A DNA stretch of 64,000 nt, taken from assembly GCA_050251055.1 (NCBI GenBank), contig JBFWNL010000007.1:64001-128000 (forward strand), written 5' to 3'. Every line of letters begins with the position of its first letter. Position 1 is the first letter of the stretch. Below are positions 15,077-41,335 of this stretch, piece by piece. A program made the position numbers and the translations under genes. The DNA comes from Bacteriovoracia bacterium (GTDB lineage Bacteria > Bdellovibrionota > UBA1018 > JBFWNL01). Under the pieces are notes generated by a model that saw only the letters and a list, made by a program, of their open reading frames with translations, searched no databases and was not told the origin of the DNA.

Positions 15077-15231
15077 TTCACTTGCCCCTGAGAGTCTTCC
15101 GGCCCCGAATACGCGAAAAACCCTAACGAAACATCAGTCTAATTAAATTGATTGAAATAGTCAATTATAAATTACTCAATAAATACATTATGTTGTGCTG
15201 GCATCAAAGAGGTACTCAGGTACGGGGGAGG

Positions 15232-15735
15232 CTAAATTCCCGTGATTTTCACCAAGATTCGCTTCTCCCGGCGCCCATCGAACTCGGCGTAAAATACCTG
15301 CTGCCAGGTTCCGAAGTCGAGTTTTCCGCTGGTCACGGGAATCGTGAGGGCGTGATTGGTGAGGTAGGACTTCAGATGGGCGTCACCGTTATCTTCGCCG
15401 GTTTGGTGGTGCTCGTAGTCTTCGCCATAGGGGGCGAGATTTTCAATCCAGCGGGAGATGTCCCGCAAAAGGCCGCCTTCGGCATCGTTGATGTAGACGC
15501 CGGCGGTGATGTGCATGGCGCTGACGAAGCAGAAGCCGTCGGTGACTTTCGAGCGAGCGAGCACTTCTTCCACGTGGTCGGTGACATTTACGAGCGCGTA
15601 GCGCTTGGGGATGTTCACATACAGGTGTTCGGTATGATGAATCGCGGGCGATTTTTCCACGTGGGCGACGGGTTTTGCCCGCAGAAAACCCGGGCACTTA
15701 CCGGGGTCGAGCAGCCAGTCGGAATCTTTCAGCAC
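15232..15735 (-). CDS. yjbQ: YjbQ/UPF0047 family protein
   Basis: MHITAGVYIND, DNGDAHLK, GTWQQVFYAEFDG motifs; start uncertain. Confidence 0.9.
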   Translation of the reverse strand: MLKDSDWLLDPGKCPGFLRAKPVAHVEKSPAIHHTEHLYVNIPKRYALVNVTDHVEEVLARSKVTDGFCFVSAMHITAGVYINDAEGGLLRDISRWIENLAPYGEDYEHHQTGEDNGDAHLKSYLTNHALTIPVTSGKLDFGTWQQVFYAEFDGRREKRILVKITGI

Positions 15736-15751
15736 CCGTTCCTCCGCGTTG

Positions 15752-16084
15752 CTAGTTATCGATGCGTTGACCTGTCTTCATGCAGAGCTCGAAGAGCTTG
15801 TCGAAGGGGTACATCCCGGTGTTGTGTAGGTCGCTCCAGTTCACCCGGATGGCGTAGCGTCCGACCAGCTCCACCGCCGTGGGCTTCACGGTTGCCACGA
15901 TCGACTCCCGTTTCAGCGTCCGCACGCCGGTCATCTCATCCACGCAGTTGGCGCAGGGGCAGTGGAAGCGCAGCTCGAAGTAGGGGAGCAAGAAGCGTTC
16001 TCCAGTGTTCCACTCCATGAGCATTTCACGGTCGCTGTGCTTTTCGATGCGGTTGGGGATGAGGTCAGCCATGAACTCAAACAA
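15752..16084 (-). CDS. DUF971 family (gamma-butyrobetaine hydroxylase N-terminal-like) protein
   Basis: LRFHCPCANC, VGRYAIRVNWSDLHNTGMY motifs. Confidence 0.9.
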   Translation of the reverse strand: MFEFMADLIPNRIEKHSDREMLMEWNTGERFLLPYFELRFHCPCANCVDEMTGVRTLKRESIVATVKPTAVELVGRYAIRVNWSDLHNTGMYPFDKLFELCMKTGQRIDN

Positions 16085-16221
16085 ACACAGCGTTCGGGGT
16101 CTGTCTATATGGGGGTTATTTCAGGTGAAAAATCACACACATCAGTAATTGACTAAATAAGTAATGAATTATATAAGAGGTGCGCTTTAGCTAGGTGTAC
16201 GGAGCCAGGAAGGAAATCTTC

Positions 16222-17055
16222 ATGAAGGCGACCGCGCATCTGATCTTATTGGCAACGGTGTTCACCGCCACGGCCTGTAGCAACTCCATTCCCGCTCCCA
16301 TTTCGTCGGCGAATTCTCCCGGGCCCACAAATCCCGGGGGCGAAGAAGAATCCACGATCAACAAACCTATTTTCGAAGGGTCGGTGCCGCTCTCCGCGCC
16401 TTCGACGACCGAAAGCTTTGCGATCGAAGGGCTTTCTCCGGGGTTTGCCGAAATGATCGGGGACTGCGCATTTCACCAAACAAAATCCACTCTAGAAGGG
16501 TTCGGTCATGAAATCGCCGATCAAGCGAATCTGTACGATCGTCACTATTTGAATCAGCACTCGACAAAACTGACTCGTGCGGGTGACCAGTATCGCCTTT
16601 ATTTAGACATGAAATCCTTCGGCTATTCCCGGGAAGTCTATTTTCAGCGCGAGGTTGGGAGCGGCCACCATACCGTGTTCTTGGTCGGGGTAAACGTAGA
16701 TGGGGAAGGCAGGGTGAAGTGGGAAGCCGTTGGCGAGACGCCGGCAAAGGAAATCAGGTTTGCCTTTTATGCGCAAGATTCGCTTCCTTACCTTCAATTC
16801 GATACCTTCCACTCAAAACACGGTTCGGGAGTCCTGACCGATACTGGCCGTAAAGCGATCACTTTTCGGAATACCACTGACTTTGAGTTAAAGGGTGCGA
16901 ACCTCGTCGTTTCCCGGGCCATGCCGGATAGAATACCGCTCCATTGGATCTCGCACCCGGTCCACGGCGAAAAATCGTTTGGCCAGCGGTCGGACTATTT
17001 TATCGATGCCAAGGCGTATTTGCAGTGCATCCGGCAGGCCGTGGGCTTGAACTAA
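16222..17055 (+). CDS. Hypothetical lipoprotein
   Basis: SD AAGGA; lipobox ATAC; Pro/Ser linker. Confidence 0.65.
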   Translation: MKATAHLILLATVFTATACSNSIPAPISSANSPGPTNPGGEEESTINKPIFEGSVPLSAPSTTESFAIEGLSPGFAEMIGDCAFHQTKSTLEGFGHEIADQANLYDRHYLNQHSTKLTRAGDQYRLYLDMKSFGYSREVYFQREVGSGHHTVFLVGVNVDGEGRVKWEAVGETPAKEIRFAFYAQDSLPYLQFDTFHSKHGSGVLTDTGRKAITFRNTTDFELKGANLVVSRAMPDRIPLHWISHPVHGEKSFGQRSDYFIDAKAYLQCIRQAVGLN

Positions 17056-17107: not shown

Positions 17108-18223
17108 ATGAGCTCATCGCAAAAAACGCTTCGCGGCGCGGTTATCGGCTACGGTTTCATCTCAGGCAAAGGCCATATCCCGGCCTACCTCGAGCGTGCT
17201 CAAAAGCAGCAGGATGTCCAGATCACGGCGGTGGCCGACATCTGCGAGGGCCGGCGCAAGATCGCGGCCGAAACCCTGCCTGGCGTGCGCGTTTACAGTG
17301 ACTACGAATCGCTGCTCGCCGGCGAAACCGGCAAGCTTGATTTCGTCGATATCTCCACGCCTCCTTGTGACCACGCGAAGATCGCGCACGCGGCGTTTGA
17401 TCGCGGCTTACACGTGCTTTGCGAAAAGCCCCTGACCACTTCCTTGGAAGACGCCCGTGCGCTTTTGAAACATGCTCAGGACGCCCAGCGCGTGCTTTTC
17501 CCTTGTCACAACTACAAGCATGCGCCCGTGGTGAAAGCTATTCGCGAGATCATCGACAGCGGCAAGATCGGCCGCGTGAAGTCGGTGGCGCTCAGCACCT
17601 ACCGCAACACGCACGCCAAGGGCGTGACCGAATGGAACACGCACTGGCGCCGCGAAAACCGCTACAGTGGCGGCGGCATCGCGATGGACCACGGTAGCCA
17701 TAGCTTTTATTTGATGTTCGATTGGCTGGGATCGTATCCCACCGCGGTCACGGCGAAGATGTCGACCCAAGGCACGAAGCCCGATGGTTCGCCCATGGAC
17801 ACGGAAGATAATTTCACCGCGACGCTCACGTTCCCTACGGGCTCGGCCCACGCCTACCTGACTTGGACGGCGGGCGTGCGCAAGGTCATTTACAGCATTC
17901 AAGGCGAGCGCGGCGCGGTCACCGTCGATGACGACGATCTCCAGCTGGCGACTATCGAAAAAACCTCCGGCCCCGACGTCGCCCAAGGCGCCGTGAAATG
18001 GAACGTCGAGAAGCGCTCGATCGCTTCGCATTGGATGGATGCGAGCCACGTAAGCTGGTTTAACTCGCTTTTTGATCAATTCAAGGGCGCCATCGCGCGC
18101 GGCGAATTCGTGGGAAAAGAAGCCCGCGAGTCGTATCTCTGCATCGAGCTCATCATGGCCGCTTACGCTTCGGCCGCCGATCGGTGCCAGGAACAGCCTC
18201 TTTTGGGCTTGCCCACCGCGTAA
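17108..18223 (+). CDS. Gfo/Idh/MocA-family oxidoreductase
   Basis: IGYGFIS Rossmann motif, CEKP, GGGIAMDHGSH. Confidence 0.92.
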   Translation: MSSSQKTLRGAVIGYGFISGKGHIPAYLERAQKQQDVQITAVADICEGRRKIAAETLPGVRVYSDYESLLAGETGKLDFVDISTPPCDHAKIAHAAFDRGLHVLCEKPLTTSLEDARALLKHAQDAQRVLFPCHNYKHAPVVKAIREIIDSGKIGRVKSVALSTYRNTHAKGVTEWNTHWRRENRYSGGGIAMDHGSHSFYLMFDWLGSYPTAVTAKMSTQGTKPDGSPMDTEDNFTATLTFPTGSAHAYLTWTAGVRKVIYSIQGERGAVTVDDDDLQLATIEKTSGPDVAQGAVKWNVEKRSIASHWMDASHVSWFNSLFDQFKGAIARGEFVGKEARESYLCIELIMAAYASAADRCQEQPLLGLPTA

Positions 18224-18355
18224 TTTTGGGTGGATTGCCCAAAACGGGGTTTTGCCGCCTTTTCTGATCAAAATGCTGGGTGATTATGGCCTTGCGCTCT
18301 GGGGCTCCGTGGACTAATTCACTTAGGTTTCAAATCCATAAGGAGCATTCATAGC

Positions 18356-19723
18356 ATGGCTCAGCCAACGACCCAGTCGAGTACAAAGAAAAGCACGGCC
18401 CGCAACATTACACCCGCCAAAGGGAAGCTCGCGGTTCTCACTCCCGGCATGGGGGCGGTGGCCACTACTTTTTACGCCGGCGTCGAAGCCGTCAAGAAAG
18501 GCATCTCGCAGCCAATCGGTTCGTACACTCAGCTCGGCAAGATTCGTTTGGGCAAGCGTACGGAGAATCGTCATAAGCTGGTGAAGGATCTCGTACCGCT
18601 CGCTTCGCTCGATCAGCTGGTGTTCGGTGGCTGGGACATTTTCCCCGAGAACGCTTACGAAGCCGCGAAGAACGCGCAAGTGCTCGAAAAAGAATTGCTG
18701 GAAGCCGTGAAGGAACCGCTCTCGAAGATCAAGCCAATGGCGGCTGTTTTCGATCACGAGTTCGTGAAGCGCATCGACGGCCCGAACGTCAAGAAGGGCG
18801 CCAACAAGATGGAGCTCGCCGAACAGCTCCGCGCCGACATCCGTAATTTCATGAAAGACAACGGCTGCGATCGCGCCGTGATGGTTTGGTGCGCGTCCAC
18901 CGAAGTGTATACGCCGCCTACGGCCGTGCACCAGTCGGTGAAGGCTTTCGAAGAAGGCCTGCGTAACAACGATCCTTCGATCTCGCCCGCGCAGATCTAC
19001 ACGTACGCCGCGCTGAAAGAGCGGGTGCCCTACGCCAACGGATCGCCGAACGTGTCGGTCGAAATGCCCTGCCTGCAGGAGCTGGCCAACGAAATGGCTA
19101 CCCCGATCTCGGGTTCGGATTTCAAGACGGGTCAAACGTTGTTGAAGACCGTCATCGCTCCCGGCCTGCGCAACCGCCAGTTGGGCGTCGCTGGCTGGTA
19201 CAGCACCAACATCCTCGGTAACCGCGATGGCGAAGTGCTCGATGATCCGGGCTCGTTCAAGTCGAAGGAAGTCACCAAGAGCGGCGTGCTCACGGACATC
19301 TTCTCGGCGGAAATGTACCCCGAGCTCTACAAAGACATCCACCACGTGGTCCGCATCAATTACTACCCACCACGCGGCGATAATAAAGAAGGCTGGGACA
19401 ACATCGACATCTTCGGTTGGCTGGGCTACCCGATGCAGATCAAGGTGAACTTCCTCTGCCGCGACTCCATTTTGGCCGCCCCGATCGTGCTCGATCTGGC
19501 GCTGTTCATGGATCTCGCGTCGCGCGCCGAAATGCGCGGCATTCAAGAGTGGCTTTCGTTCTACTTCAAATCGCCGGTCGTGAAACCGGGCCTGCGCGCC
19601 GAGCATGATCTGTCGACGCAGCTCCTGAAGCTCGAGAACACGTTGCGCTTCTTCACCAACGAAGAGCTCATCAATCACTTGGGCCTCACGCATTACGGCA
19701 TCGACGAAGGCGAAAACGCCTAA
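18356..19723 (+). CDS. ino1: Inositol-3-phosphate synthase
   Basis: GMGAVATT, VWCASTE, ANGSPN, GSDFKTGQT, NILGNRDG, NFLCRDSILAAPIVLDL, FYFKSP; SD AAGGAG. Confidence 0.96.
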   Translation: MAQPTTQSSTKKSTARNITPAKGKLAVLTPGMGAVATTFYAGVEAVKKGISQPIGSYTQLGKIRLGKRTENRHKLVKDLVPLASLDQLVFGGWDIFPENAYEAAKNAQVLEKELLEAVKEPLSKIKPMAAVFDHEFVKRIDGPNVKKGANKMELAEQLRADIRNFMKDNGCDRAVMVWCASTEVYTPPTAVHQSVKAFEEGLRNNDPSISPAQIYTYAALKERVPYANGSPNVSVEMPCLQELANEMATPISGSDFKTGQTLLKTVIAPGLRNRQLGVAGWYSTNILGNRDGEVLDDPGSFKSKEVTKSGVLTDIFSAEMYPELYKDIHHVVRINYYPPRGDNKEGWDNIDIFGWLGYPMQIKVNFLCRDSILAAPIVLDLALFMDLASRAEMRGIQEWLSFYFKSPVVKPGLRAEHDLSTQLLKLENTLRFFTNEELINHLGLTHYGIDEGENA

Positions 19724-19745
19724 TAACGAAGGCGAAAACGCTTAA
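19704..19745. repeat. Tandem 20-bp duplication of the ino1 3' end
   Basis: ACGAAGGCGAAAACGCCTAA (19704-19723) and ACGAAGGCGAAAACGCTTAA (19726-19745), 19/20 identical. Confidence 0.9.
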
Positions 19746-19749
19746 GGTG

Positions 19750-20685
19750 CTAGCGACCCGAGTTCTTTAGGTATCGAATCACGTGTTCGACATCCATTCC
19801 TTTCGGCGGAGGGTTGCGTTCGAATAGGTTTCTAACGACCTCCTCTAGACGTCGTCCGTCCAGGAGACGGATAAAGTGGTATATGTAGGGGTCTTTCTTC
19901 GCTGCTAGTTCTTGGAGAGCTTCCACAATTTTGGGTTCTTGCGCTTTCGAGAAGTGAGATGCGTGCCCGGCTGCGACGTCATACACGGCTCGGAAAATAT
20001 CCGTAGGGGATGCTGTGTCGACGTTCATCAACCACGCTTCTCCGGCAAGAAACTTTTCGAGTGCTCCAGGGACAGCCTCTTCGATGACTACGGTTCCTTT
20101 GGGCTGGGTCTTGAATCGGAGTAAGCTCCGCGGGGTCATGGGTGCCTGGTTAGCAGACGCTTTGAATTCTCGGGCGCCGATGACGCCAAGAATTAGACTG
20201 GGAGCTTGGTCGATCACGAATGGGCTATCAAGTTCTGTCGCGATCGCGGTCGCCCGTTGTAAGATTGCAGACTCGGGGGTTCCGTCCCCCCTAAATGAAA
20301 AGGCGTGCACGACGTCGACGTCACCGCCAGCTCGGAAAGTGCCCGAACTGGACGAACCCACGATTTGTATACCGATGCCCTCTGACTCCAATCTGTCTAA
20401 GTAGGCCACGAAGGAGGGGTCGTAGACTTCGTGTGCATCTTGCCGTGATAAAATAACCGCCGAGCGCCCATTTTTCCCATAGGGAGCCAGCCGCTGCCTG
20501 GAGCGGGTAATCAGTTTCTCGGTTGAAGCGTTTAGGGGAAACAGGGAGTCGGCGGCACCATGGTCCAGGACTCTGCGGATTTTTTCTTCTGGGCAGCTTC
20601 CTAGGGCAGCGCTGTTTTGTAGGCAGAAATAGGCAAGCAGGAAAAGGCTAGGTAGGTTTCTTACGTTGATTGTAAATCGAGCCAT
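19750..20685 (-). CDS. Hypothetical exported protein lying antisense within the inositol cluster
   Basis: 311-aa ORF with hydrophobic N-terminus; looks more AT-rich than its neighbours by eye. Confidence 0.6.
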   Translation of the reverse strand: MARFTINVRNLPSLFLLAYFCLQNSAALGSCPEEKIRRVLDHGAADSLFPLNASTEKLITRSRQRLAPYGKNGRSAVILSRQDAHEVYDPSFVAYLDRLESEGIGIQIVGSSSSGTFRAGGDVDVVHAFSFRGDGTPESAILQRATAIATELDSPFVIDQAPSLILGVIGAREFKASANQAPMTPRSLLRFKTQPKGTVVIEEAVPGALEKFLAGEAWLMNVDTASPTDIFRAVYDVAAGHASHFSKAQEPKIVEALQELAAKKDPYIYHFIRLLDGRRLEEVVRNLFERNPPPKGMDVEHVIRYLKNSGR

Positions 20686-20694
20686 TCTAGTAAC

Positions 20695-20721
20695 TTATCG
20701 GTGGGAAGCCCCGCATACCTA
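20695..20721 (-). promoter_or_regulatory. sigma28-like promoter
   Basis: TAGG-N15-ACCGATAA, 9 nt before ATG 20685. Confidence 0.6.
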
Positions 20722-20846
20722 AAGAATGACGGTAAAGTGACGGTAGCATCTGCGGTAGGCAGGTTGTGCCAGGTAAGGCTATGAGATCTTAGAGGTTTTT
20801 CGCTGTTTTTTAAATGGCAGACGGGGTTTGTCGTGCTATGTTCTGA

Positions 20847-21779
20847 ATGATGCACATCGACGGAACCTTCTTTGAGTTAACCGGGGACTTGATCAACACG
20901 ATCATTTTGTTCGGTCTGCTCTTCGCCCTCATCATCGCTTACGTGATTCGTTTGGTCGTGGTGGGGCGCGCGCGCTTTGATCGCGTGGATCGGGAGGGCA
21001 CGGGTTTGCTTTTGAAGAAGGGCCCCATGGAGATGGTCTACTGGAGTTTGCAGCCTTTCGCCCGTTTGGCGGTGTTCTTTCGGGTGACGCCAAACATGCT
21101 TTCTTGGGCTTGTTTGGTTTTGGGGCTGGCGGCGGGGACTTGCTTGGCCTTCGGTCACTTTGGTTTCGGAGCGGCCTTCGCTACCGTGTCGGCGCTGCTC
21201 GACGCACTGGATGGCATGGTCGCGCGTATGACCGGACGGGCTTCCGACGCGGGCGAAGTGCTCGATGCCACCGTTGATCGCTACAGCGAATTTTTCTTTC
21301 TGGGTGGGCTTTGCGTTTATTATCGCGATATGTCCGAGCTGGTCGTGCTGACGCTGCTCGCGCTCATGGGCTCGTTCATGGTGAGCTACTCCACCGCCAA
21401 AGCGGAAGCGCTGCAGGTGAAGCCACCGCGCGGAAACATGCGGCGTACGGAGCGCGCGATTTTCATGACCGTGGGCGCCGCGCTCGCACCCATCAGCATT
21501 CCTTGGTTTGAGACGCCGGCGTACCTCAACGTGCCGGTCCCCGTGGGTTATCCCATGGTGCTTGCGGTGGGGATCATCGCCGTGCTGGCGAACTTCTCGG
21601 CGATCGAGCGCCTAGTGGCGATCGCGAAAGCCGTGCGCGCACGGGAAAACCAGGCACGTGAGCAGCTCAAGCAAGCGGAAGCGCTCACGGAAGCCCGGCA
21701 GGAGCTTGAGCAGATTGCCGGCTCTGACGACGCCGAAGCCGCGCCCGCGAACGCCACCAGCCGGTCGCCCAAGGTCTAG
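20847..21779 (+). CDS. CDP-alcohol phosphatidyltransferase (phosphatidylinositol-phosphate synthase-like)
   Basis: TPNMLS; DALDGMVAR-x8-GEVLDATVDR signature; SFMVSY..AKAEA; RTER. Confidence 0.92.
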   Translation: MMHIDGTFFELTGDLINTIILFGLLFALIIAYVIRLVVVGRARFDRVDREGTGLLLKKGPMEMVYWSLQPFARLAVFFRVTPNMLSWACLVLGLAAGTCLAFGHFGFGAAFATVSALLDALDGMVARMTGRASDAGEVLDATVDRYSEFFFLGGLCVYYRDMSELVVLTLLALMGSFMVSYSTAKAEALQVKPPRGNMRRTERAIFMTVGAALAPISIPWFETPAYLNVPVPVGYPMVLAVGIIAVLANFSAIERLVAIAKAVRARENQAREQLKQAEALTEARQELEQIAGSDDAEAAPANATSRSPKV

Positions 21780-21846
21780 GTCCACCAAAACCCCTATTTT
21801 ATCGGGCTATTTTTCCCGCCATGAAGTATATCCGGGCGGTTAGCCT

Positions 21847-23214
21847 ATGGAAATCCAGCAGCCGAAAAATCAAAAGCCCGTCTTGAAAACCCCCGTGCCT
21901 GGACCGAAGAGCCAAGCGATTCGTGCCCGTGAGGAGCAAGCGCTTGCCCCCGGCTTACAAGGCTTTGCGCTCATGGCGGGCATCGTGGTCGACGAGGCTC
22001 GCGGCAGCGCCGTGACGGATGTCGACGGCAACACTTTTCTCGACATCATTGGCGGTATCGGCGTGAACGGACTGGGCCACTCACACCCTAAGTTCGTCGA
22101 AGCGATCCAGAAGCAGGTGGCGAAGGCTTCGGTGGGGAGCTTCACTTCGGAAGCGCGCGTGCGCTTGTTCGAGCAGCTTTCGAAAAATCGCCCGACCCCC
22201 TCGGTGTATCGCACGCAACTTTATTCCGGAGGCGCGGAAGCGGTGGAGAGCGCGCTGAGGCTCGCGAAGTGCCATACCGGCAAGTACGAGTTCATCAGTT
22301 TTTGGGGCGGGTTCCACGGCAAAACCATGGGTGTGCTATCGCTCATGGGCTCGGACTTTAAAAATGGCCTCGGCCCGATGGTGCCGGGTTCGCACATTGT
22401 CCCATACGCGAACTGTTATCGCTGTCCCTTTCAGTTAAAGAATCCAAGCTGCGGCATGGCCTGCGTGGAGCATCTGCGCAAACACGTTAAGCTGGGGACC
22501 GCGGGCGCGGTCGCGGGCATCATCGCCGAGCCTATGCAGGGCACGGCCGGAAATGTGATTCCGCCGAATGACTTCTTGCCCGCCGTGGCGGAAGTGGCGA
22601 AGGAGATCGGCGCGCTCATGATCATCGACGAAATGATCACGGGCTTTGGTCGCACGGGTAAGTACTGGGGCGCCCACCATTCGGGTGTGCAGGCCGATAT
22701 CGTCACGCTCGGTAAGCAATTCGGAGGTGGTTTTCCGATGTCGGCCGTGATGACTACGGATGACATCTCAAAGGCGCAGCCCTGGAGCGTTCCCTCGGGG
22801 TCTTCTTCCAGCTACGGCGGAAACCCGTTGGGCGCGGCGGCCGGCGCGGCGGCGCTCACAATCATCGAGGAAGAGGGATTGGTCGAGAACTCCCGTAAAA
22901 TGGGGGATTATTTCCTGGGCAAGCTCAAGCCCTTCGAGGAAAAATACTCCTTTATCGGCGAGGCGCGGGGAGCGGGACTTTTCCTGGCGCTCGAGATGGT
23001 TCGCGACAAGGTGACGAAGGAGCCGCTCAGCAAAAAGGCGTGTCAGCGTGTTTTCACCGAGTGCCTCAAGCGTGGATTGCTCACCATGGCTTACGCGCCA
23101 AGTTTCCGCATTCAACCCGCGATGTCCATCGATACCGGCACCATCGATGCCGCCGTGGGCGTGCTGGAAGAAGTTTTCGACTTAATGGAAAAAGAAAAAC
23201 TTTGGCAGGCGTAG
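21847..23214 (+). CDS. Class III PLP-dependent aminotransferase
   Basis: SGGAEAVE, GFHGKT, EPMQG, IDEMITGFGRTG, TLGK (PLP Lys), SYGGNP. Confidence 0.92.
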   Translation: MEIQQPKNQKPVLKTPVPGPKSQAIRAREEQALAPGLQGFALMAGIVVDEARGSAVTDVDGNTFLDIIGGIGVNGLGHSHPKFVEAIQKQVAKASVGSFTSEARVRLFEQLSKNRPTPSVYRTQLYSGGAEAVESALRLAKCHTGKYEFISFWGGFHGKTMGVLSLMGSDFKNGLGPMVPGSHIVPYANCYRCPFQLKNPSCGMACVEHLRKHVKLGTAGAVAGIIAEPMQGTAGNVIPPNDFLPAVAEVAKEIGALMIIDEMITGFGRTGKYWGAHHSGVQADIVTLGKQFGGGFPMSAVMTTDDISKAQPWSVPSGSSSSYGGNPLGAAAGAAALTIIEEEGLVENSRKMGDYFLGKLKPFEEKYSFIGEARGAGLFLALEMVRDKVTKEPLSKKACQRVFTECLKRGLLTMAYAPSFRIQPAMSIDTGTIDAAVGVLEEVFDLMEKEKLWQA

Positions 23215-23256
23215 GCGCCTGCCTTTGGGGGTCCTGATCGGGTCCCCAAGGGAGCG

Positions 23257-26805: not shown

Positions 26806-26895
26806 CCTCGAGAGTTAACCTGAGTGACGGCGTCCGCAAAGCAGTTTCAGCAATTAGCGTTGTGTTTCCGCCTATTTTGGTCTTTACTATTGGTC

Positions 26896-27678
26896 GTGAA
26901 TCTCTGTCAGTTACTCGTGCGCTGGACCAAGCGATTGGGCGAATTTATGCTCTTCGTCAACGAGACGATCAAAGTCTTTCCGGGTCTGTGGAAGCGCCGC
27001 GACTTGTTCTTCCGTCAGTGTGAATTTATCGGAGTGACTTCGACAGGTATTATTCTCGTGGCGGCGCTCTTTATGGGTGCTGTTTTAGGTTATCAACTTT
27101 ACGTGTCATTTCATTACTTTGGTGCCGAGGCTTTACTCGGCGGAAGCGTCGGGGTGGCACTCTTCCGGGAGCTGGCTCCCGTCATGGGCGCGGTGATGGT
27201 GACCGGGCGGGCGGGCGCGGCGATGGCCGCTGAGATCGCCAGTATGCGAATCTCCGAACAGATCGACGCGCTCGAGGTCATGGCGATCGATCCGATGGAA
27301 TACCTCGTGGCTCCGCGGGTGGTGGCGGGCGTTTGCATGATGCCGCTTCTGTCCGTCCTTTTCGCGGGCATCGCTTCGCTTGCGGCCGCGGGCGTGGCCT
27401 GCGGAGTGATGGGATTGAGCACGCCGGTCTATTGGAGTCAGTTTTCCAAAGTGGTCGATCCGATCGAGCTCACCCATTGCGTGACCAAGGGAGCGATGTT
27501 CGGGTTGGTGCTGACCTGGGTGGGTTGTTTCTATGGGTTTCGTGCGCACGGGGGCGCCTACGCGGTAGGCAAGGCCACACGTACGACGGTGGTGGTGAGC
27601 TGTCTCACGATTCTGCTCTCGGATTACGTGCTGACGTCGCTACTTCCATTTGGATTTGCCAGACTGATTGCCGAATGA
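26896..27678 (+). CDS. mlaE: MlaE-family lipid ABC permease
   Basis: RELAPV, GRAGAAMAAEIASMRISEQIDALEVMAIDP, VGKATRTTVV; start uncertain (26824-26947). Confidence 0.92.
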   Translation: MNLCQLLVRWTKRLGEFMLFVNETIKVFPGLWKRRDLFFRQCEFIGVTSTGIILVAALFMGAVLGYQLYVSFHYFGAEALLGGSVGVALFRELAPVMGAVMVTGRAGAAMAAEIASMRISEQIDALEVMAIDPMEYLVAPRVVAGVCMMPLLSVLFAGIASLAAAGVACGVMGLSTPVYWSQFSKVVDPIELTHCVTKGAMFGLVLTWVGCFYGFRAHGGAYAVGKATRTTVVVSCLTILLSDYVLTSLLPFGFARLIAE

Positions 27679-27706
27679 CCGATTGCAGAATAGAAAGAGT
27701 ACGACT

Positions 27707-29197
27707 ATGGCAGGCGAAAACATCCGAACCGTAAAAATCAAAGTGGGCCTCTTCTCCTTGGCCGGACTGGCGCTGATCGGCGTGATCACCGTCTTCGTGA
27801 ACGATCGCCCCTTCTGGTGGCGGGGGTGCGAGTTGGTGCACGTGAACATCGAGGATGCCACGGGCCTAAAGACGAAATCCCCCATCCGTTCGCTCGGGTT
27901 GCAGATCGGGTACCTTCATTCGGTCGAGCTCTTTCAGCAGCAGGTCCGTTTGGGGATTTGCATCACCGCGCCGGTGGAAGTGCTGCCGGACACGCGCGCC
28001 TATGTGAAGGGCGAAGGTTTCTTGGGCGACAAATTCGTGGAGCTAAAGCCCGTGAAGTACGTTGGGCAATCGCGCGATGAGACGTTGAACGACGCAGCTC
28101 CCTCGCAGACCTCGACTCCCGCGCCGGCGCAAACCTGGGCACCCAGCCGGCCGATCCACCCATTGCTTTGGGCGATGGGGTGGGGCGTGGACGCGGCTTG
28201 GGCGGCCAAAACCAACGTGAACGTGGCCGAGGCGAAGGATAGCCGCAAGGAGATCCCGGTCGGTGAAAAGAGCCAAGACGTGCAGGAGTTGGTGAACGAG
28301 GTCAACGGCCTCGTGGGCGAACTCTCCGTGCTCACGAACAATCTCAAAACGTCGCTCAACCCGGTCGACATGCAGCGCACGATGCAGAAGTTGAATCGTA
28401 CGCTTGAGAACGCGGCGAAAACGCTTTCGCCGGAAGGCAATCTCACCACTACGGCCCAACGCGCGCTCGCGAAACTCGAAGACGCCATCGAGCAGATGCG
28501 CGACATGGTGACGCGAATCAACCAGGGCGAAGGCTCGGTGGGCATGGTGATCAACGACCCCAGCTATGCCGAGGAGCTGCGCGATGCCCTCCGGAATTTG
28601 AATTCGCTGCTTTCGAAGGTGAGCGGCGTACGTTTCCAGGTGGATGTCGGAGCGGAAGCTTTGCCGGCTTACAGCGATGCGCGGGGCTGGTTCCGGTTGG
28701 GCATCTGGCCGTCGGCCGACCGCTACTATCTGCTCGGTTTGTCGGTCGATCCGCGCGGGAAAACCAATGTGCTGGACGTCACCACCACGGCGGGCACGGC
28801 TAGCACCACGACTCGTTCGGTAACCACTGAGCAAGGAGGCATCCTGCTCACCGCGATGTTGGGTAAGGTGTTTTGGCACCGGCTTGATTTTTCGGCCGGC
28901 ATCTATCACGGGGACGCCACGCTGGGCGTGGCTTTCAATCTGGGACCGCAGACCAATGAGGAGCTGCTCCGGGTGGAGGCGCAGGGGTTTAGCGGCGCGG
29001 ATGGAAGGGGCGGCCACCAGTTCGACGGCCGCGCGAACGCCATCTGGTTTCCGTCGCAGAGCCCTTACCTGAAGACGATTTACATCCGCGGCGGGGTGGA
29101 TTCGGTTCGCCAGGTAAACGGAAAGTTTTCGTATTCGGTGGGCGCCGGCATCTCGTTCAACGACCGGGACATCAAGATGCTCTTCGCGCTCCGCTAG
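27707..29197 (+). CDS. MlaD/MCE-domain protein with helical stalk and beta-rich C-terminal domain
   Basis: IKVGLF transmembrane anchor; DATGLK...GLQIG...GFLGDKFVEL MCE motifs; GEGSVGMVIND. Confidence 0.88.
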   Translation: MAGENIRTVKIKVGLFSLAGLALIGVITVFVNDRPFWWRGCELVHVNIEDATGLKTKSPIRSLGLQIGYLHSVELFQQQVRLGICITAPVEVLPDTRAYVKGEGFLGDKFVELKPVKYVGQSRDETLNDAAPSQTSTPAPAQTWAPSRPIHPLLWAMGWGVDAAWAAKTNVNVAEAKDSRKEIPVGEKSQDVQELVNEVNGLVGELSVLTNNLKTSLNPVDMQRTMQKLNRTLENAAKTLSPEGNLTTTAQRALAKLEDAIEQMRDMVTRINQGEGSVGMVINDPSYAEELRDALRNLNSLLSKVSGVRFQVDVGAEALPAYSDARGWFRLGIWPSADRYYLLGLSVDPRGKTNVLDVTTTAGTASTTTRSVTTEQGGILLTAMLGKVFWHRLDFSAGIYHGDATLGVAFNLGPQTNEELLRVEAQGFSGADGRGGHQFDGRANAIWFPSQSPYLKTIYIRGGVDSVRQVNGKFSYSVGAGISFNDRDIKMLFALR

Positions 29198-30529: not shown

Positions 30530-31222
30530 CTAGGCGACGATCGCGCCTTTGAGGCTGTCGAAGATGAATTTGCCAATCTTCGATAGCTCTTCCGGTTCGA
30601 GCTGATTAAATCTCAAGCCCAAGCCGTTATTCCCCTTCCAGACGACGGTGCTCATGGTGTTGAGTCCGCCCAGATCGGGGATCTGGGTATGCAAGGTTTC
30701 GTTCACCGACCCGAGGTCCTCGGTGGTTTCCACGAAGGCCCCTCCCACGGATAGGTTCGAAATAGTCGCTTCCTTGCCGTTGCCGAGGCGGATCGGGATC
30801 CGCGTTTTAATCCGGCGAAACTTGCGCTTTTCGTTGCCATCGTACTTGGATTGCGTGTTGAGCACGTACTGAATGGCGAGCGTTAGGCTCTGCTCGTTCG
30901 TTGGCAGCTTGAGAATCACTAGCTGTTCGTATTTGATCATGTTGACCAAAACCTCATTCGTGGTCTGGCCAGCCAGGAAAACCACCGGCAAGTTGGCTTG
31001 CGAGTTTTTCAGCTGGTCGACCAGGCGGTCTCCGTTGAGATCTGGCAACTGGTATTCGGTGATCAGTATGTCGGGGCGATTTTTTTCAAATAAGGACAGC
31101 GCGGCTTGCCCATTGGAAGCCATGATGGCGTTGAAGCCATGCTTGATTAGAATTCGGCAGACGTCGACTTTAACGCCGGTGTCCGGGCTCACCACGAGCA
31201 CTTTCGTCTGTTTTGCTGTCAT
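30530..31222 (-). CDS. Receiver-like domain plus PilZ domain protein
   Basis: REC fold (PDILITEYQLPDLNG); PilZ motifs RKFRR and NLSVGG. Confidence 0.85.
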   Translation of the reverse strand: MTAKQTKVLVVSPDTGVKVDVCRILIKHGFNAIMASNGQAALSLFEKNRPDILITEYQLPDLNGDRLVDQLKNSQANLPVVFLAGQTTNEVLVNMIKYEQLVILKLPTNEQSLTLAIQYVLNTQSKYDGNEKRKFRRIKTRIPIRLGNGKEATISNLSVGGAFVETTEDLGSVNETLHTQIPDLGGLNTMSTVVWKGNNGLGLRFNQLEPEELSKIGKFIFDSLKGAIVA

Positions 31223-31947: not shown

Positions 31948-34900
31948 TTATTTTTCGTCGCCCGGCTCGCTTCCGGTTTCGGATGAAGACTCGATGCCTC
32001 GCTCCGTGACGCGCGTGACGACCTCGGCCGCGACTTTCTCACCGCCGGGCACGGCGTATTCAGCGGAGATTTTCGTCTCCCCTGACTTGAGGGCTACGGC
32101 GTGACCTTCATTTTCCTTGGCGTTGCTAATGCTCAAGATCTCGCGGTTATCGCTCTTCCAGATCGCAAGCGCCGTGACGTCGACACGCGATCCGTCGCCG
32201 CCACGCGCGTAGGCCTTGAACTTGCGTTTTTCGCCGACGGCAAGCGCACCGCGGTCGGGTTGAATTTCCAGTCGGGTGGGATCGACTTCCTTTACCGTCA
32301 ACGCCATGGAGACGGATGGGAGGTCTACATCCGGCAATTCGGCCACGATCTTGGCCACGCCCGCGCCTAGGCCCTGGCAAATTCCCGTCGCGGCGCCCAC
32401 GCTCGCGATCCCCCTGTCTTCAGTCGAGAAGATGACTTTCGCGGTGACGTCGTCGATGCTTCCATCTGAAAGGGTAGCTAGAACCTGGGCGGAGTAGCGA
32501 TCTCCTTTGGCGATGGTCGCTGCGTTTTCTGCGAACGCGAGCTGTCGCGGCACGGCGGGCGTTACTTGAACCAGGCGGCTGCCCCAAGTGGATTCCCGGT
32601 CGGCAAGCTGTAGGACCGCCGCGCCCACGCTCACTCCAGTGATCATACCTGGCTGCATGGCGCTCGCGGACAGCACCCCGGGGCGATCGGACGTCCATAC
32701 CAACTGCGAGGTGACGTCACGCACGGATCCGTCGCCGTAGTAACCGCGCGCGGTGAGGCGTAGCGAGTTCCCCTTCGCCACCGATAGCGATCCGAGGGGT
32801 AGGATTTCCACCCGTAGCAGGCGCGCCGAGGTGACTTGAAGTTTTGCGTGCCCCGTGACGTCGCCGCCGGAATATGCGCTGACAAAGGACATTCCGTCGA
32901 GCACCGAGCGGATCGCGCCTTCGCGGTGACTCGACATGCGGGCGGTGATTTTGGCGGTTTTTCCGGCCTGGATCCCGATGAACGTGCCCGGACGGGCTTC
33001 GTCCGCTTTCGCCACGGATTCGTCGTCCGCTGTCCACTGCACTGCGGAGGTCAGGTCGCGGCGCGAGCCGTTCGTATAGATGCCGAGCGCGGTAAAGGCT
33101 TGCAATTCGCCGGCCGCCACGCTCGCTTCGGGGGGAGCGATTTCGATCCAGGCGAGTGCGACGTCCTGTACGGTGACGCTCGCACGGCCGGTGATTCCAT
33201 CCAGGGTGGCCGAGAGTTCCGTACGTCCCGGTTTTTCCCCGGCGCGGAATGCACCCGATCCCAAGGGCTTCGCCACTTGCGCATCAGCCGATGCCCACGC
33301 GGCCTCGTGGGTGAGATTGCGGCGCGAGCCGTCCTGATAGACACCGGTGGCATTAAAGGTTTCGGTTTCGTCGATTTCTAGAACGGCATCCAGGGGGGAG
33401 AGTTCGATCGCCACGAGCGTCTTTCCCGCGGCGGTTACCTTTAAAAGCGCGTACCCCGTGACCACGGCTTTTTCGTTCGCTCCCGCGGCCCCCGTGGAGA
33501 AGGAAACGCGTGCTTCTCCTTCCTTAACGCCTTTGAATGCGCCCCCGCCTTCGCTGGCCGCTACTTCCGGTTTCTCCGATCGCCAGATGCCTTCGCGTAG
33601 GGGTTCGGCCCGCCCATCGCTGAACTTTCCGATCGCCTGGTAATGAATGAGCTTTCCTGCTTCTACTTGACCGGAGTTCCCGAGCGGAGGTACGAGTTCG
33701 ATCGAGACGAGTTTGAGTTCATTGGGTTCGCGGTTTTGCACCTCAAGCGTGGCTTGCGCAACGAGGCCGCTGCCCGGTTCTTTGGCCATGACGCCGAGAC
33801 GGCCGGCCTTTAGTCCGCGGGCGATGCCCGAGGCCTCGATCGTCGCCAGCTCCCGATCGCTTACACCCCATTCGACTTTGGTGGAAATGTCCTGGGTGCT
33901 TTGATCGTCGAAGGTCCCTTTGGCGGTAAAGACGATAGCTTGGCCTACCCGAACCGCACCGCGTTCCGGATTGATCTGGATCGAGGTCAGCTGCGGGGTC
34001 GTCGCGAGAACCACCAGGGCCGCCTGGGCCGAACGGCGTTGCCCGGGCTCGGTGGCGGTGATCGTGACCCGGCCGGGTTTCAGGGTTTTAAATAGTCCGT
34101 TTTCCTCGAGCGCCGCTACGGAAGGGTCGGAGCTTTGCCATTGGGCTTCGGCGGTGAGCTCACGCGAGCTCCCATCTGAATACGCCCCGATGAAGTGGAA
34201 CCGTTGAGAAGTGCCCGCCCGCACCGATGCGGTGAAGGGGTCCAAGAAAACGTTCACGAGACTCGGGGCACGGCGTAGAACCGTGACGTCCAGCCGCCCG
34301 GTTTTGGGAGACGTGCCGTTTCCCATTTCGACGGCTTCGATACGCGTGACGCCTTCGCCGAGGGCCACCAACTGCCCTTCGGATCCCGGCGCGTTACTCA
34401 CTTGGGCGACGGCACCGACCGTTGAGTTCCACACCACCCGGTCGGTGAATGGCACGCTCGTGCCGTCGGAAAAATGTCCCGTGGCCGAGAGGGGCCGGAC
34501 ATCTTCCACGTACACGGGGCCGACAAGGGGAGCAATCGTGATACCGGTGAGTACGGCGGGAGTGACCGTCACTACCGCCCGGGCGGACTCCACCACTTCC
34601 GCGGGGCGCTCGAGGCTTCCGGGCGCGCTGAGCGCGATCAGGTTTCGCACCGCCGACGCCATGATTTCCGCGTTGCCGGGGCGTATTCCGGTGACGACTC
34701 CCGGAGACCCGGGAGCGTTGCTAACGAGGGCGACGTCGGTCTGTCGACTGCGCCAGGCGACGCCGCTGGTGATATCTGAGGTCGTGCCGTTGGAAAACCG
34801 TCCCAAGGCGCGAAGCGGAACTCGTTGGCCGGCCGGGACGCTTGCGGCCGCTGGATTGACATCAATCGATAGCAGCTGTTCGGGACGAATCACGACGTTA

Positions 34901-35826
34901 ACATAGACGGGGGGAGCGCCGGCGTAACTGACGAGCACTTCCGTGGAGCCGGCGCCTTGCGCTCGGGCGACGTTCAGCCGGACCGGGTCGAAGCGAAGCA
35001 CCGCGGAGTTCTGGCTCTGCCAGGTCACTTGGGAGGTGAGGTTCACGTATTGACCACTGGAGTTGGTGAAGATCGCCTCGGCTTGGAACGGGATCTCCGC
35101 CAGAGTCCAAGGTTGGGCGACGCTACTCGGCGTGATTCGCAGGGGTGAAAGCAGCTCGGCGGCGGCGACGCGTACGCCATTGAGGTCGGCCGTGAGCCCG
35201 CCGAGGGTGGCGCGGACGTTAATCAAGCCAAGGCTTGAGTTTGACGCCGTTAGACGGCCCGGATTCCCCGCGGAAAAATTTGCGATCGAGGGCTGGGATG
35301 AAATCCAGCTCGCCTGGGAGGTGACATCTCGGGTAGTGTTGTCCGTATAAGTCATCGTGGCTTGGAGATTTCGGAACGAACCTTGGGGAATACCGCCGAC
35401 TAGCGGCGATACTCGCAGTCGGAGGGGGGCCGCTTCCGAAACGCGGACGGAAATTTCTACGAAAACTTTTTTCTGATTGGCGGGATTCTGCAAGGCCGCG
35501 CGAATTCGGGCCGCTCCCCGGCCTTGGGCGCGGAAGGTACCGGCGGAGGTGACCGTCAACACGGGGTCACCGCTGATTTCCCACTCCAGTTCTTGGGCCT
35601 GTAGCATCTGCGCCGGTTGCCCGGCGCTGATTTTGTAGATGCGAATCTGATTAGTGGTGCCGAGCGGCCAGCTGGCGTTGATGGAGGAAAGATCCGTCTC
35701 AAGCGAGAACTCCGCTTTTGCGAGCTCATCCTGACGGTACAGCCCCGTGCAGCCGGTGGTGGATATAGATAGAGCGACGATTAACCCAAAGAGTAAACGA
35801 ACCAAGCGAGAACCCCCTGCTTTCAC
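31948..35826 (-). CDS. Lipoprotein with about 13 Big_2 (intimin/Lig-type Ig-like) repeats
   Basis: Lipobox TTGC; 13 units of ~90 aa with a G.(F/Y).DG..(D)VT...W.S.D..VA pattern. Confidence 0.9.
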   Translation of the reverse strand: MKAGGSRLVRLLFGLIVALSISTTGCTGLYRQDELAKAEFSLETDLSSINASWPLGTTNQIRIYKISAGQPAQMLQAQELEWEISGDPVLTVTSAGTFRAQGRGAARIRAALQNPANQKKVFVEISVRVSEAAPLRLRVSPLVGGIPQGSFRNLQATMTYTDNTTRDVTSQASWISSQPSIANFSAGNPGRLTASNSSLGLINVRATLGGLTADLNGVRVAAAELLSPLRITPSSVAQPWTLAEIPFQAEAIFTNSSGQYVNLTSQVTWQSQNSAVLRFDPVRLNVARAQGAGSTEVLVSYAGAPPVYVNVVIRPEQLLSIDVNPAAASVPAGQRVPLRALGRFSNGTTSDITSGVAWRSRQTDVALVSNAPGSPGVVTGIRPGNAEIMASAVRNLIALSAPGSLERPAEVVESARAVVTVTPAVLTGITIAPLVGPVYVEDVRPLSATGHFSDGTSVPFTDRVVWNSTVGAVAQVSNAPGSEGQLVALGEGVTRIEAVEMGNGTSPKTGRLDVTVLRRAPSLVNVFLDPFTASVRAGTSQRFHFIGAYSDGSSRELTAEAQWQSSDPSVAALEENGLFKTLKPGRVTITATEPGQRRSAQAALVVLATTPQLTSIQINPERGAVRVGQAIVFTAKGTFDDQSTQDISTKVEWGVSDRELATIEASGIARGLKAGRLGVMAKEPGSGLVAQATLEVQNREPNELKLVSIELVPPLGNSGQVEAGKLIHYQAIGKFSDGRAEPLREGIWRSEKPEVAASEGGGAFKGVKEGEARVSFSTGAAGANEKAVVTGYALLKVTAAGKTLVAIELSPLDAVLEIDETETFNATGVYQDGSRRNLTHEAAWASADAQVAKPLGSGAFRAGEKPGRTELSATLDGITGRASVTVQDVALAWIEIAPPEASVAAGELQAFTALGIYTNGSRRDLTSAVQWTADDESVAKADEARPGTFIGIQAGKTAKITARMSSHREGAIRSVLDGMSFVSAYSGGDVTGHAKLQVTSARLLRVEILPLGSLSVAKGNSLRLTARGYYGDGSVRDVTSQLVWTSDRPGVLSASAMQPGMITGVSVGAAVLQLADRESTWGSRLVQVTPAVPRQLAFAENAATIAKGDRYSAQVLATLSDGSIDDVTAKVIFSTEDRGIASVGAATGICQGLGAGVAKIVAELPDVDLPSVSMALTVKEVDPTRLEIQPDRGALAVGEKRKFKAYARGGDGSRVDVTALAIWKSDNREILSISNAKENEGHAVALKSGETKISAEYAVPGGEKVAAEVVTRVTERGIESSSETGSEPGDEK

Positions 35827-37387: not shown

Positions 37388-37816
37388 CTAGCCGCGCGGA
37401 AAGCGCGTGCTTTCAGGGAATTCCTGTAGGATTTCCTGCTGGGCTTTTTCAACGTCCGCGGCGCGTTGAGGAGCTTGTTGGCTCATCTCTTCCTCTAAAG
37501 TTTTGGTGCGACGCGTTGGAAGATTCAGAAAAATTACTTTCTTCACTTCTTCTGGGACTCCGCGCAGTGCCAGCGCAAGCTTAGTATCCGGAATACGACC
37601 GAGTACTTTCTGGAGTTCTCGCACGTGGATTTTAGCCAAGTCGTCGAAGGTGAAGAGCTTGGCTTGAATCTCTTGGGCAAGCTTTGGGTCTCGGACCACG
37701 ATCTCCGCCATGATGCGGTCCCTTGATTCCTTATCGAGATGCTGGAAGATCTCGACGACCGCCATCACTCCTCCAATGGCTTTCCCCTGCGGTTTCTCCT
37801 GCTCAGATTTTTTCAT
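37388..37816 (-). CDS. Stand-alone FliG C-terminal domain protein
   Basis: GGVMAVVEI, LFTFDDL, LALALRG, RRTKTLEEEM, DVEKAQQEI; only 142 aa. Confidence 0.8.
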   Translation of the reverse strand: MKKSEQEKPQGKAIGGVMAVVEIFQHLDKESRDRIMAEIVVRDPKLAQEIQAKLFTFDDLAKIHVRELQKVLGRIPDTKLALALRGVPEEVKKVIFLNLPTRRTKTLEEEMSQQAPQRAADVEKAQQEILQEFPESTRFPRG

Positions 37817-37992
37817 ATGAGTGTGTCGGCGCCCGAACTGTAGTCCTGGCATCGCACCTTAATAGTACTTGCGGCCGCGTGGAGTTGGGAGAACAATCAG
37901 ACCAGTTTTTTAATGCTGATGGAACGGCCGCCAAAAGGCGCTGCGCGTTACTTTGTTCTTGTCAGCAAATAGCCGCAGTGGGAGAGGGAGCG

Positions 37993-39369: not shown

Positions 39370-39379
39370 AGGAGAATCC

Positions 39380-40522: not shown

Positions 40523-40525
40523 CGC

Positions 40526-41332: not shown

Positions 41333-41335
41333 TCC

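Follow-up and report, generated by a model that had tools for sequence, protein, structure and literature searches.

A 64,000-nucleotide stretch of a Bacteriovoracia bacterium genome (positions 64,001-128,000 of contig 7, G000:C7, in a 3.77-Mb, 21-contig, 93.5%-complete assembly; hereafter the window) carries a gene for a Gfo/Idh/MocA-family dehydrogenase and one for a class III aminotransferase on either side of ino1, which encodes myo-inositol-1-phosphate synthase, and of a gene for a CDP-alcohol phosphatidyltransferase resembling phosphatidylinositol phosphate (PIP) synthases. We propose, with a probability of about 0.6, that the locus joins a known inositol-lipid pathway to an accessory module of two enzymes, the dehydrogenase and the aminotransferase, which together would aminate the inositol or inositol phosphate head group and thereby give a zwitterionic inositol-type lipid. 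The identities of these genes, the intact catalytic motifs of their products, the strictness with which the two enzymes are paired and the dependence of the pair on an inositol-lipid context are direct observations. The nearest relatives of the window, judged by the aminotransferase, are metagenome-assembled genomes (MAGs) titled Bacteriovorax, Bdellovibrio and Oligoflexia.

The pairing is apparent from the distribution of the genes in the phylum, of which 151 genomes were searched for each of the four genes at thresholds of our own setting (E-value ceilings of 1e-100 with the aminotransferase, 1e-40 with both the dehydrogenase and ino1, and 1e-15 with the transferase). The aminotransferase was recovered in 21 genomes, every one of which also has the dehydrogenase (21/21), with ino1 present in 20 and an ortholog of the transferase (at least 43% identity) in 19 of them; one more genome has a weaker dehydrogenase match only (41% identity), and 24 ino1-positive genomes have neither the dehydrogenase nor the aminotransferase. 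Related genomes in this sample are not independent, and the counts are given without a statistic. The original prediction had put forward co-occurrence with ino1 as a check, and the association holds both in these 20 of 21 aminotransferase-bearing genomes and in the two cluster architectures described below. G149 (94% complete) and G073 (97% complete), two genomes from the order to which the window belongs, have the genes for MlaE, MMPL-PAP2, GtrA, the CDP-alcohol transferase and Ino1 in the same arrangement, and no dehydrogenase or aminotransferase was found anywhere in either of them. As the same core occurs without the pair in these sister genomes, the pair is an addition to a core that works without it. 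The two loci in question (L171, G149:C6:17000-29000, and L172, G073:C16:18000-30000) are natural controls lacking the module.

Gene order was compared in 80 loci collected with the aminotransferase alone as query. The transferase accompanies it in 64 loci, the dehydrogenase in 59, both in 54 and at least one cluster partner in 74; GtrA-like genes were found in 51, PAP2_3 in 36, MMPL in 35, PgpA in 26 and ino1 in 15. Two of the six loci without any partner (L070 and L073) have less than 3 kb of flanking sequence on one side; flanks of 3 kb or more on either side are available in 53 loci, 42 of which contain both the transferase and the dehydrogenase. Such adjacency far exceeds what chance would give. 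Polyangia have a colinear arrangement, in the order ino1, dehydrogenase (GFO), CDP-alcohol transferase (CDPOH), GtrA, aminotransferase (AT3), PAP2_3, PgpA and MMPL, such that the inositol phosphate synthase (MIPS), the PIP synthase (PIPS), PgpA and PAP2_3 are all encoded in one operon. A second scan, with a Myxococcaceae ortholog as query, reached Anaeromyxobacteraceae, Binatia, Rokubacteria/Methylomirabilia, Alphaproteobacteria and Terriglobales MAGs, and revealed a second architecture with the order ino1, HAD hydrolase, NTP transferase, an ATP-grasp-like protein without a family, AT3, GFO, a long CDP-OH transferase and LPG_synthase_TM (e.g. L123, L137, L138, L139, L142 and L150). Here the aminotransferase is 50-55% identical to that of the window and bears the same signature, and the dehydrogenase is about 33% identical. 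What the two architectures share is Ino1, its product, and a CDP-alcohol transferase, which is of a different type in each; judged by these gene orders, the pair has joined two different inositol-lipid pathways. In the second architecture, the gene immediately upstream of that for the aminotransferase encodes a conserved protein of 268-285 amino acids (aa) that belongs to no Pfam family (L137:7100-7951, L139:7144-7983, L142:7153-7959, L138:7156-7974 and L150:7126-7983); its copies are 34-65% identical, one of them faintly matches an ATP-grasp glutamate ligase (MptN, 20.6 bits), and no counterpart was found in the window. Among the carriers, Bdellovibrionota bacterium FG-2 (L016; G151:C315 and C361) is the only record without a MAG label and may be culturable: its aminotransferase is 67% and its Ino1 85% identical to those of the window, and its dehydrogenase (75-79% identity) is split over two contig ends.

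The aminotransferase matches PF00202 over residues 46-443 with 310.4 bits (gathering score 30.5), and this is the only Pfam family found at E values up to 0.001, which places the protein outside the DegT/DnrJ/EryC1 family. Its NCBIfam scores fall below all equivalog cut-offs (GabT TIGR00700, 261.7 against 506.65; argD TIGR00707, 255.8 against 410.05), the best model being PRK05769 (361.8 against 552). An alignment of the protein and 74 orthologs (75 in total) with Escherichia coli GabT showed that: 1) K290, D261 and S322 are equivalent to K268, D239 and T297 of GabT, which we take to be the Schiff-base lysine for pyridoxal phosphate (PLP), the aspartate at the pyridine nitrogen and a part of the PLP-phosphate loop, and are kept in 75/75 orthologs. 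2) R421, the equivalent of the carboxylate-binding R398 of GabT, is likewise kept in 75/75, and I50 is also kept. 3) The position of GabT R141 is taken by K159, with lysine in 75/75. 4) The position of the Glu gate, GabT E211, is taken by T233 (71 T, 2 S and 2 A among the 75), and that of Q242 by I264 (I or L in the orthologs). 5) The loop PSGSSSSYGGNP, residues 316-327, aligns with the loop PGGLGGTYAGNP of GabT; in it S317, G318, S320, S321, S322 and Y323 are kept in 75/75 orthologs and S319 in 74/75. Thus, at the level of aligned residues, the enzyme keeps the catalytic lysine and aspartate and the carboxylate-binding arginine, and has lost the residues with which GabT holds the omega-carboxylate; with the Glu gate lost, the amino donor is uncertain. 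The original prediction had singled out an unusual serine-rich substrate loop. The serines, and a three-residue PW[SG] insertion before the loop, are indeed specific to this clade, E. coli GabT, ArgD, PatA and BioA having neither, but by alignment PSGSSSSYGGNP is the canonical T-[FY]-x-G-N-P PLP-phosphate loop of the family in a clade-specific form.

The same signature recurs in 152 locus rows (135 distinct sequences, 50-78% identity), with FHGK[TS] in 151, EPxQG[TS]xG in about 150 and the serine-rich loop in about 149. With the four E. coli enzymes the clade shares the fold family, the PLP lysine, the aspartate and a T/S-[FY]-x-G-N-P loop. It differs from GabT, ArgD and BioA in its FHGKT motif, common only to PatA among the four, and from the 2-oxoglutarate enzymes in having QGTAG in place of QGEGG; at the corresponding sites E. 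coli GabT and ArgD carry HGR and QGEGG. A tree of 32 rows, comprising the window protein, 24 of the 135 distinct orthologs (26 were picked and two dropped by a coverage filter), the four enzymes from E. coli and, from the genome itself, three further class III proteins (HemL and two others), gives the clade a separate position (100/99 support) with a stem measuring 1.48 changes per column; how the outgroups are ordered among themselves is unsure, their branches being long. The phylogenetic check against the E. coli class III enzymes that had been suggested for this protein thus returns a clade of its own, and together with the sub-cut-off NCBIfam scores and the replacement of R141 by lysine and of E211 by T, S or A in 75/75 orthologs it bears out the earlier expectation that the aminotransferase is something other than a plain GABA or ornithine transaminase.

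The dehydrogenase, the sole match of its kind in the genome, has the N- and C-terminal GFO_IDH_MocA domains (PF01408, 85.8 bits; PF22725, 75 bits; PF02894, 72 bits). Its E106-K107-P108 and D194xxxH198 motifs are kept in 88/88 distinct orthologs, and we take the EKP and DxxxH motifs to be the catalytic ones of Gfo/Idh/MocA enzymes. Ino1 is unambiguous (PF07994, 330.4 bits against 25; PF01658, 113.8 bits against 27). The transferase matches PF01066 (CDP-OH_P_transf) with 48 bits, and its best NCBIfam scores are all below cut-off: archaetidylinositol-phosphate synthase (AIPS) NF040950, 116.1 against 180; BT1523-type PIPS NF052561, 101 against 350; and PIPS NF045883, 95.8 against 170. It has the signature D119xxD122G123xxAR127...G136xxxD140xxxD144 in 76/76 orthologs (D119, D122, G123, A126, R127, G136, D140 and D144), the form D1xxD2G1xxAR...G2xxxD3xxxD4 being given for CDP-alcohol phosphotransferases of class I in the consulted part of PMC4634129. 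In this full signature, and in the pair D144-R145, equivalent to D93-R94 of the Mycobacterium tuberculosis (Mt) enzyme, it is like PgsA1 and RsPIPS (6h5a, 6h53, 5d91 and 5d92); it is unlike these mycobacterial and Renibacterium PIP synthases in its weak overall similarity (E 7.6e-14), its extra helix at the N-terminus and tail at the C-terminus and its score below the family cut-off. S132, R152 and R155 of Mt PgsA1, described in the sections consulted of PMC6506517 and PMC4634129 as holding a sulfate taken as a mimic of the substrate phosphate, correspond to S180, R200 and R203, which are kept in 76/76 orthologs; R255 (72/76) is only a candidate for the equivalent of Mt R195, which falls outside the printed alignment. 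In S180, R200 and R203 the phosphate pocket of PIP synthases is kept, in line with a phosphorylated cyclitol as acceptor and a later PgpA step.

Gene context is our basis for inferring which substrate is used, which ring position is aminated, in what order the steps run, what donates the amino group and which lipid results, along the following lines. The core would consist of Ino1, the PIP-synthase-type transferase, an unlinked PgpA-type phosphatase, a PAP2_3 head-group transferase and trafficking by MMPL and Mla proteins. Ino1 would supply soluble inositol 3-phosphate, the most probable substrate of the dehydrogenase, which would oxidize one secondary ring hydroxyl to a ketone; the aminotransferase would convert the ketone to an amine, giving an amino-deoxy-inositol phosphate. 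The PIP-synthase-like enzyme would then couple this compound to CDP-diacylglycerol and PgpA would dephosphorylate the product, after which the PAP2_3 domain may hand the head group on, MMPL may export the lipid, and MMPL and the Mla system would move it. The predicted product bears both a phosphate and an amine, and hence would be a zwitterionic inositol-type lipid. Amination of an inositol head group by the pair is supported by the conserved gene order and residues described above. On balance we also lean, if by a little, towards the wider view that zwitterionic phospholipids or sphingolipids of an as yet undescribed amino-inositol (inosamine-type) class occur in many uncultured soil and freshwater bacteria of the Bdellovibrionota, Myxococcota, Binatota, Methylomirabilota, Gemmatimonadota, Acidobacteria and some Alphaproteobacteria, that the clade marked by FHGKT, QGTAG and SGSSSSYGGNP would be the first keto-inositol (or keto-inositol phosphate) aminotransferase to feed a membrane-lipid synthase, and that it would form part of a portable two-gene module found in two inositol-lipid pathways.

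Several observations weigh against the proposed amination: 1) Among the aminotransferase-bearing genomes of the phylum, G065 (93% complete) yielded neither ino1 nor the transferase, and in G106 the transferase was not found with the window query. 2) Neither partner accompanies the aminotransferase in five of the 53 loci with ample flanks, and the carriers in both scans are nearly all MAGs. 3) The dehydrogenase falls below all NCBIfam equivalog cut-offs, including those for IolG (TIGR04380, 60 against 355; NF052679, 34.8 against 540), and models for levoglucosan, xylose and UDP-GlcNAc dehydrogenases score alike at about 80 bits, leaving it without specific affinity to IolG or to any other named enzyme; the solved scyllo-inositol dehydrogenase 5ya8 is matched with an E value of only 5.1e-17. 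4) An active-site change in the transferase linked to amination was sought and rejected, the equivalent of Mt K135 being T183 in the window, T, R or S in 54, 16 and 6 of the 76 module-linked orthologs, and T, A or S in three genomes that lack the module but have a transferase of this clade. 5) Lys159 was considered as a clue to phosphate binding and set aside, E. coli PatA having the same FHGK motif; because lysine at the R141 position is thus shared with the putrescine aminotransferase, it marks, as far as the alignment goes, a non-carboxylate substrate and nothing more. 6) The best matches of the aminotransferase in the PDB include class III racemases and lyases (9wrf, 2.1e-64; 9wqz, 4.9e-61; 6tor, 1.5e-51), and, because class III comprises such enzymes as well, transamination is unproven. 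7) The window has the genes in two units, GFO-ino1 and CDPOH-AT3, with a minus-strand open reading frame (ORF) of 311 aa between them, and no GtrA homolog was found in the genome.

The foremost alternative, though an unlikely one, is a variant in which amination follows lipid assembly, the pair acting on the membrane-bound phosphatidylinositol (PI) or PIP head group, or on a ceramide-linked one, to give the same final lipid. Both architectures have a lipid-bound head group in common, as they do inositol phosphate, and the lack of a pocket change in the transferase that tracks the module is what one would expect if the enzyme still handled plain inositol phosphate. Against this, no membrane anchoring was noticed in either enzyme, although no dedicated membrane-segment prediction was made, and the Rossmann motif of the dehydrogenase begins as early as residue 9. 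Moreover, known pairs of a dehydrogenase and an aminotransferase, such as NtdC/NtdA, GnnA/GnnB and WbpB/WbpE, act on soluble phospho- or nucleotide-sugars, which favors the soluble inositol phosphate of our preferred scheme.

Less probable still is a head group modified without an amine, by epimerization or oxidation through the dehydrogenase alone, with the class III enzyme being a racemase, epimerase or lyase, or using another amine of the pathway. The racemases and the phospho-lyase among the best solved relatives (the three structures named above) and a score of 282.6 bits with the PbfA lyase model are compatible with this, but such model scores are ordinary throughout the family and lie below the cut-offs. 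The strict pairing with a ketone-forming dehydrogenase in all of the 21 genomes follows the classic keto-to-amine logic, and the arginine that would bind the carboxylate of an amino or keto acid co-substrate is invariant in the orthologs. Both points argue for transamination as proposed here.

We consider it improbable that Ino1-derived inositol is converted to a soluble aminocyclitol, such as a solute, signal or antibiotic precursor, and not to a lipid head group. The inosamine pathways known from streptidine and rhizopine do yield soluble products, and the combination of NTP transferase, CDP-OH transferase and HAD hydrolase in the second architecture resembles the route to di-myo-inositol-phosphate, with 60.5 bits for NF041135 on the L123 transferase. 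The pair nevertheless lies directly beside a membrane CDP-alcohol transferase in both architectures, and in the window-type architecture between this transferase and PAP2_3, PgpA, GtrA and MMPL genes; nor was any glycosyltransferase, amidinotransferase or other aminoglycoside-type gene found in Pfam scans of selected neighbors. Another scenario, which strikes us as very improbable, has the pair acting before Ino1 on glucose 6-phosphate, in the manner of kanosamine synthesis, with Ino1 then cyclizing the amino sugar phosphate; the Gfo/Idh/MocA enzyme NtdC of the kanosamine route does act on glucose 6-phosphate, and the end product would again be an amino-inositol phosphate. Yet Ino1 of the module-free genome G149 is 85-86% identical to that of the window, as against 83-85% in the module-positive sisters G141, G127 and G145, and gives no hint of a changed substrate. 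As Ino1 is thus similar with and without the module, its substrate would be unchanged, and amination probably follows the Ino1 step. That the dehydrogenase and aminotransferase are mere neighbors of an ordinary inositol-lipid cluster, as their not sharing one operon in the window might suggest, is hardly credible given their linkage in 54/80 loci across several phyla, the two architectures and the perfect co-occurrence in the phylum sample.

The core of the proposed pathway has a close parallel in Bacteroides thetaiotaomicron, where BT_1522-BT_1526 are described, in the consulted part of PMC9246714, as encoding MIPS, a PIP synthase that takes inositol phosphate and CDP-diacylglycerol as substrates, a PIP phosphatase of the PgpA type and a PAP2_3 phosphoinositol-dihydroceramide synthase. 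Each of these enzymes has a counterpart in the window or elsewhere in its genome, so that the set of MIPS, PIPS, PgpA-type phosphatase and PAP2_3 head-group transferase is complete. Unlike in Bacteroides, the PAP2_3 domain forms one protein with an MMPL transporter and PgpA is encoded away from the cluster (contig 3, G000:C3:343421-343846, 115 bits), and both the transferase (101 against 350) and the PAP2_3 domain, which resembles phosphoinositol-dihydroceramide synthase (NF052609, 189.1 bits against 480), score below the Bacteroides-based NCBIfam cut-offs. The words aminotransferase, dehydrogenase and oxidoreductase do not occur in the text of PMC9246714. That text also describes a putative alternative CDP-inositol cluster of Bacteroides vulgatus and Prevotella with an NTP transferase, a CDP-alcohol transferase, a HAD hydrolase and a BT_1521-like protein (Heaver et al. 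2022, PMC9246714). The second architecture matches this layout with the pair added, the cluster of B. vulgatus and Prevotella being without an amination pair as far as it is described there; an architecture of this type is not present in the window.

The chemistry proposed for the pair has precedents in sugar and cyclitol amination, namely an IolG-type dehydrogenase with StsC or MosB (scyllo-inosamine), NtdC/NtdA (kanosamine 6-phosphate) and ValM acting on validone 7-phosphate. As in those systems, a secondary alcohol would be oxidized to a ketone and then transaminated, and NtdC and IolG are likewise Gfo/Idh/MocA enzymes; unlike here, where the enzyme is of class III, most of the aminotransferases involved are of the DegT type. 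To our knowledge none of the StsC/MosB, NtdC/NtdA and ValM pathways feeds a membrane-lipid transferase, and bacterial inositol lipids are, as far as we know, thought to be rare and chemically uniform. If correct, the proposal would add a new polar head group with a charge like that of phosphatidylethanolamine and the size and hydrogen bonding of inositol, recognizable by a mass predicted to lie 0.984 Da below that of PI or inositol-phosphoceramide. It would also offer a candidate source for unassigned aminophospholipids in environmental lipidomics, and a first function for a large and sharply defined class III aminotransferase clade. The carriers belong to uncultured lineages whose envelopes are almost unstudied, and sister genomes with and without the module provide a ready comparison. 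Neither a natural amino-inositol lipid nor this combination of genes was found in the literature searched by titles and the beginnings of abstracts, a search that left subscription journals largely uncovered; in the part of PMC4587543 consulted, aminocyclitols are mentioned only as antibiotics.

The features of the locus are collected in Table 1, and the ORFs found match its coordinates exactly. As the original prediction had it, the dehydrogenase, ino1, transferase and aminotransferase genes are co-oriented, all four on the plus strand; a single operon they are not, given the two units noted above. The 311-aa ORF that separates them is a lineage-specific insertion between ino1 and the transferase gene, which are adjacent in relatives without it; it had no tblastn match in the 80 related loci and no Pfam or NCBIfam family, and it probably lies outside the pathway. 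The genome has single copies of ino1, GFO and such a transferase.

Table 1. Coordinates of the inositol-lipid locus and its immediate neighbors within the window
Feature	Position	Strand	Basis	Proposed role
Gfo/Idh/MocA-family NAD(P) sugar or cyclitol dehydrogenase, 371 aa	17108-18223	+	Pfam PF01408, PF22725, PF02894	Oxidizing half of the amination module (proposed)
ino1, myo-inositol-1-phosphate synthase, 455 aa	18356-19723	+	Pfam PF07994, PF01658	
311-aa ORF, signal or lipobox-like N-terminus	19750-20685	-	No Pfam/NCBIfam match	
PIP-synthase-like CDP-alcohol phosphatidyltransferase, 310 aa	20847-21779	+	Pfam PF01066 (CDP-OH_P_transf)	
Class III (fold type I) PLP aminotransferase, distinct clade, 455 aa	21847-23214	+	Pfam PF00202 (Aminotran_3)	Aminating half of the amination module (proposed)
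GC-rich hairpin, terminator-like, between the converging aminotransferase and MMPL::PAP2 genes	23204-23223	.	8-pair stem, 7 G-C; consensus scan only	
MMPL/RND lipid transporter fused to PAP2_3 domain, 1182 aa	23257-26805	-	PF03176, PF14378	
MlaE and MlaD-like lipid-trafficking genes, divergent from the MMPL::PAP2 gene	26824-29197	+	PF02405 233.8 bits, PF02470 38.2 bits	

MMPL and PAP2_3 functions adjoin the cluster in relatives too, fused or as separate genes; they are separate in Polyangia and in loci L006 and L008 and fused in the window. MlaE occupies the same position in the related loci L001, L008, L171 and L172. A promoter scan found two candidates against 4.2 expected, which is not above chance. 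The ORFs at 15148-16020 and 16195-17055, upstream of the dehydrogenase gene, were considered as parts of the cluster and rejected, having no family and no counterpart in the related loci; the former (plus strand, 290 aa) has an Arg/Ser-rich low-complexity tail and is probably not a real gene. Elsewhere in the genome, G000:C5:281416-282117 (L158:417-1118) encodes a second, more distant PIPS/AIPS-like CDP-alcohol transferase of 233 aa (70.6 bits with the AIPS model, cut-off 180). Further along the window, a 1292-aa protein with repeated Big_2 domains (31948-35826, minus strand) adjoins a PilZ-domain response regulator (30530-31222), and a four-gene run on the plus strand (37723-42706) encodes a glutamine-synthetase-like protein, an Fe-alcohol dehydrogenase, a Peptidase_C26 protein of the gamma-glutamyl hydrolase type and an aldehyde dehydrogenase; this run resembles an amine-catabolism cluster of the gamma-glutamylation (Puu) type.

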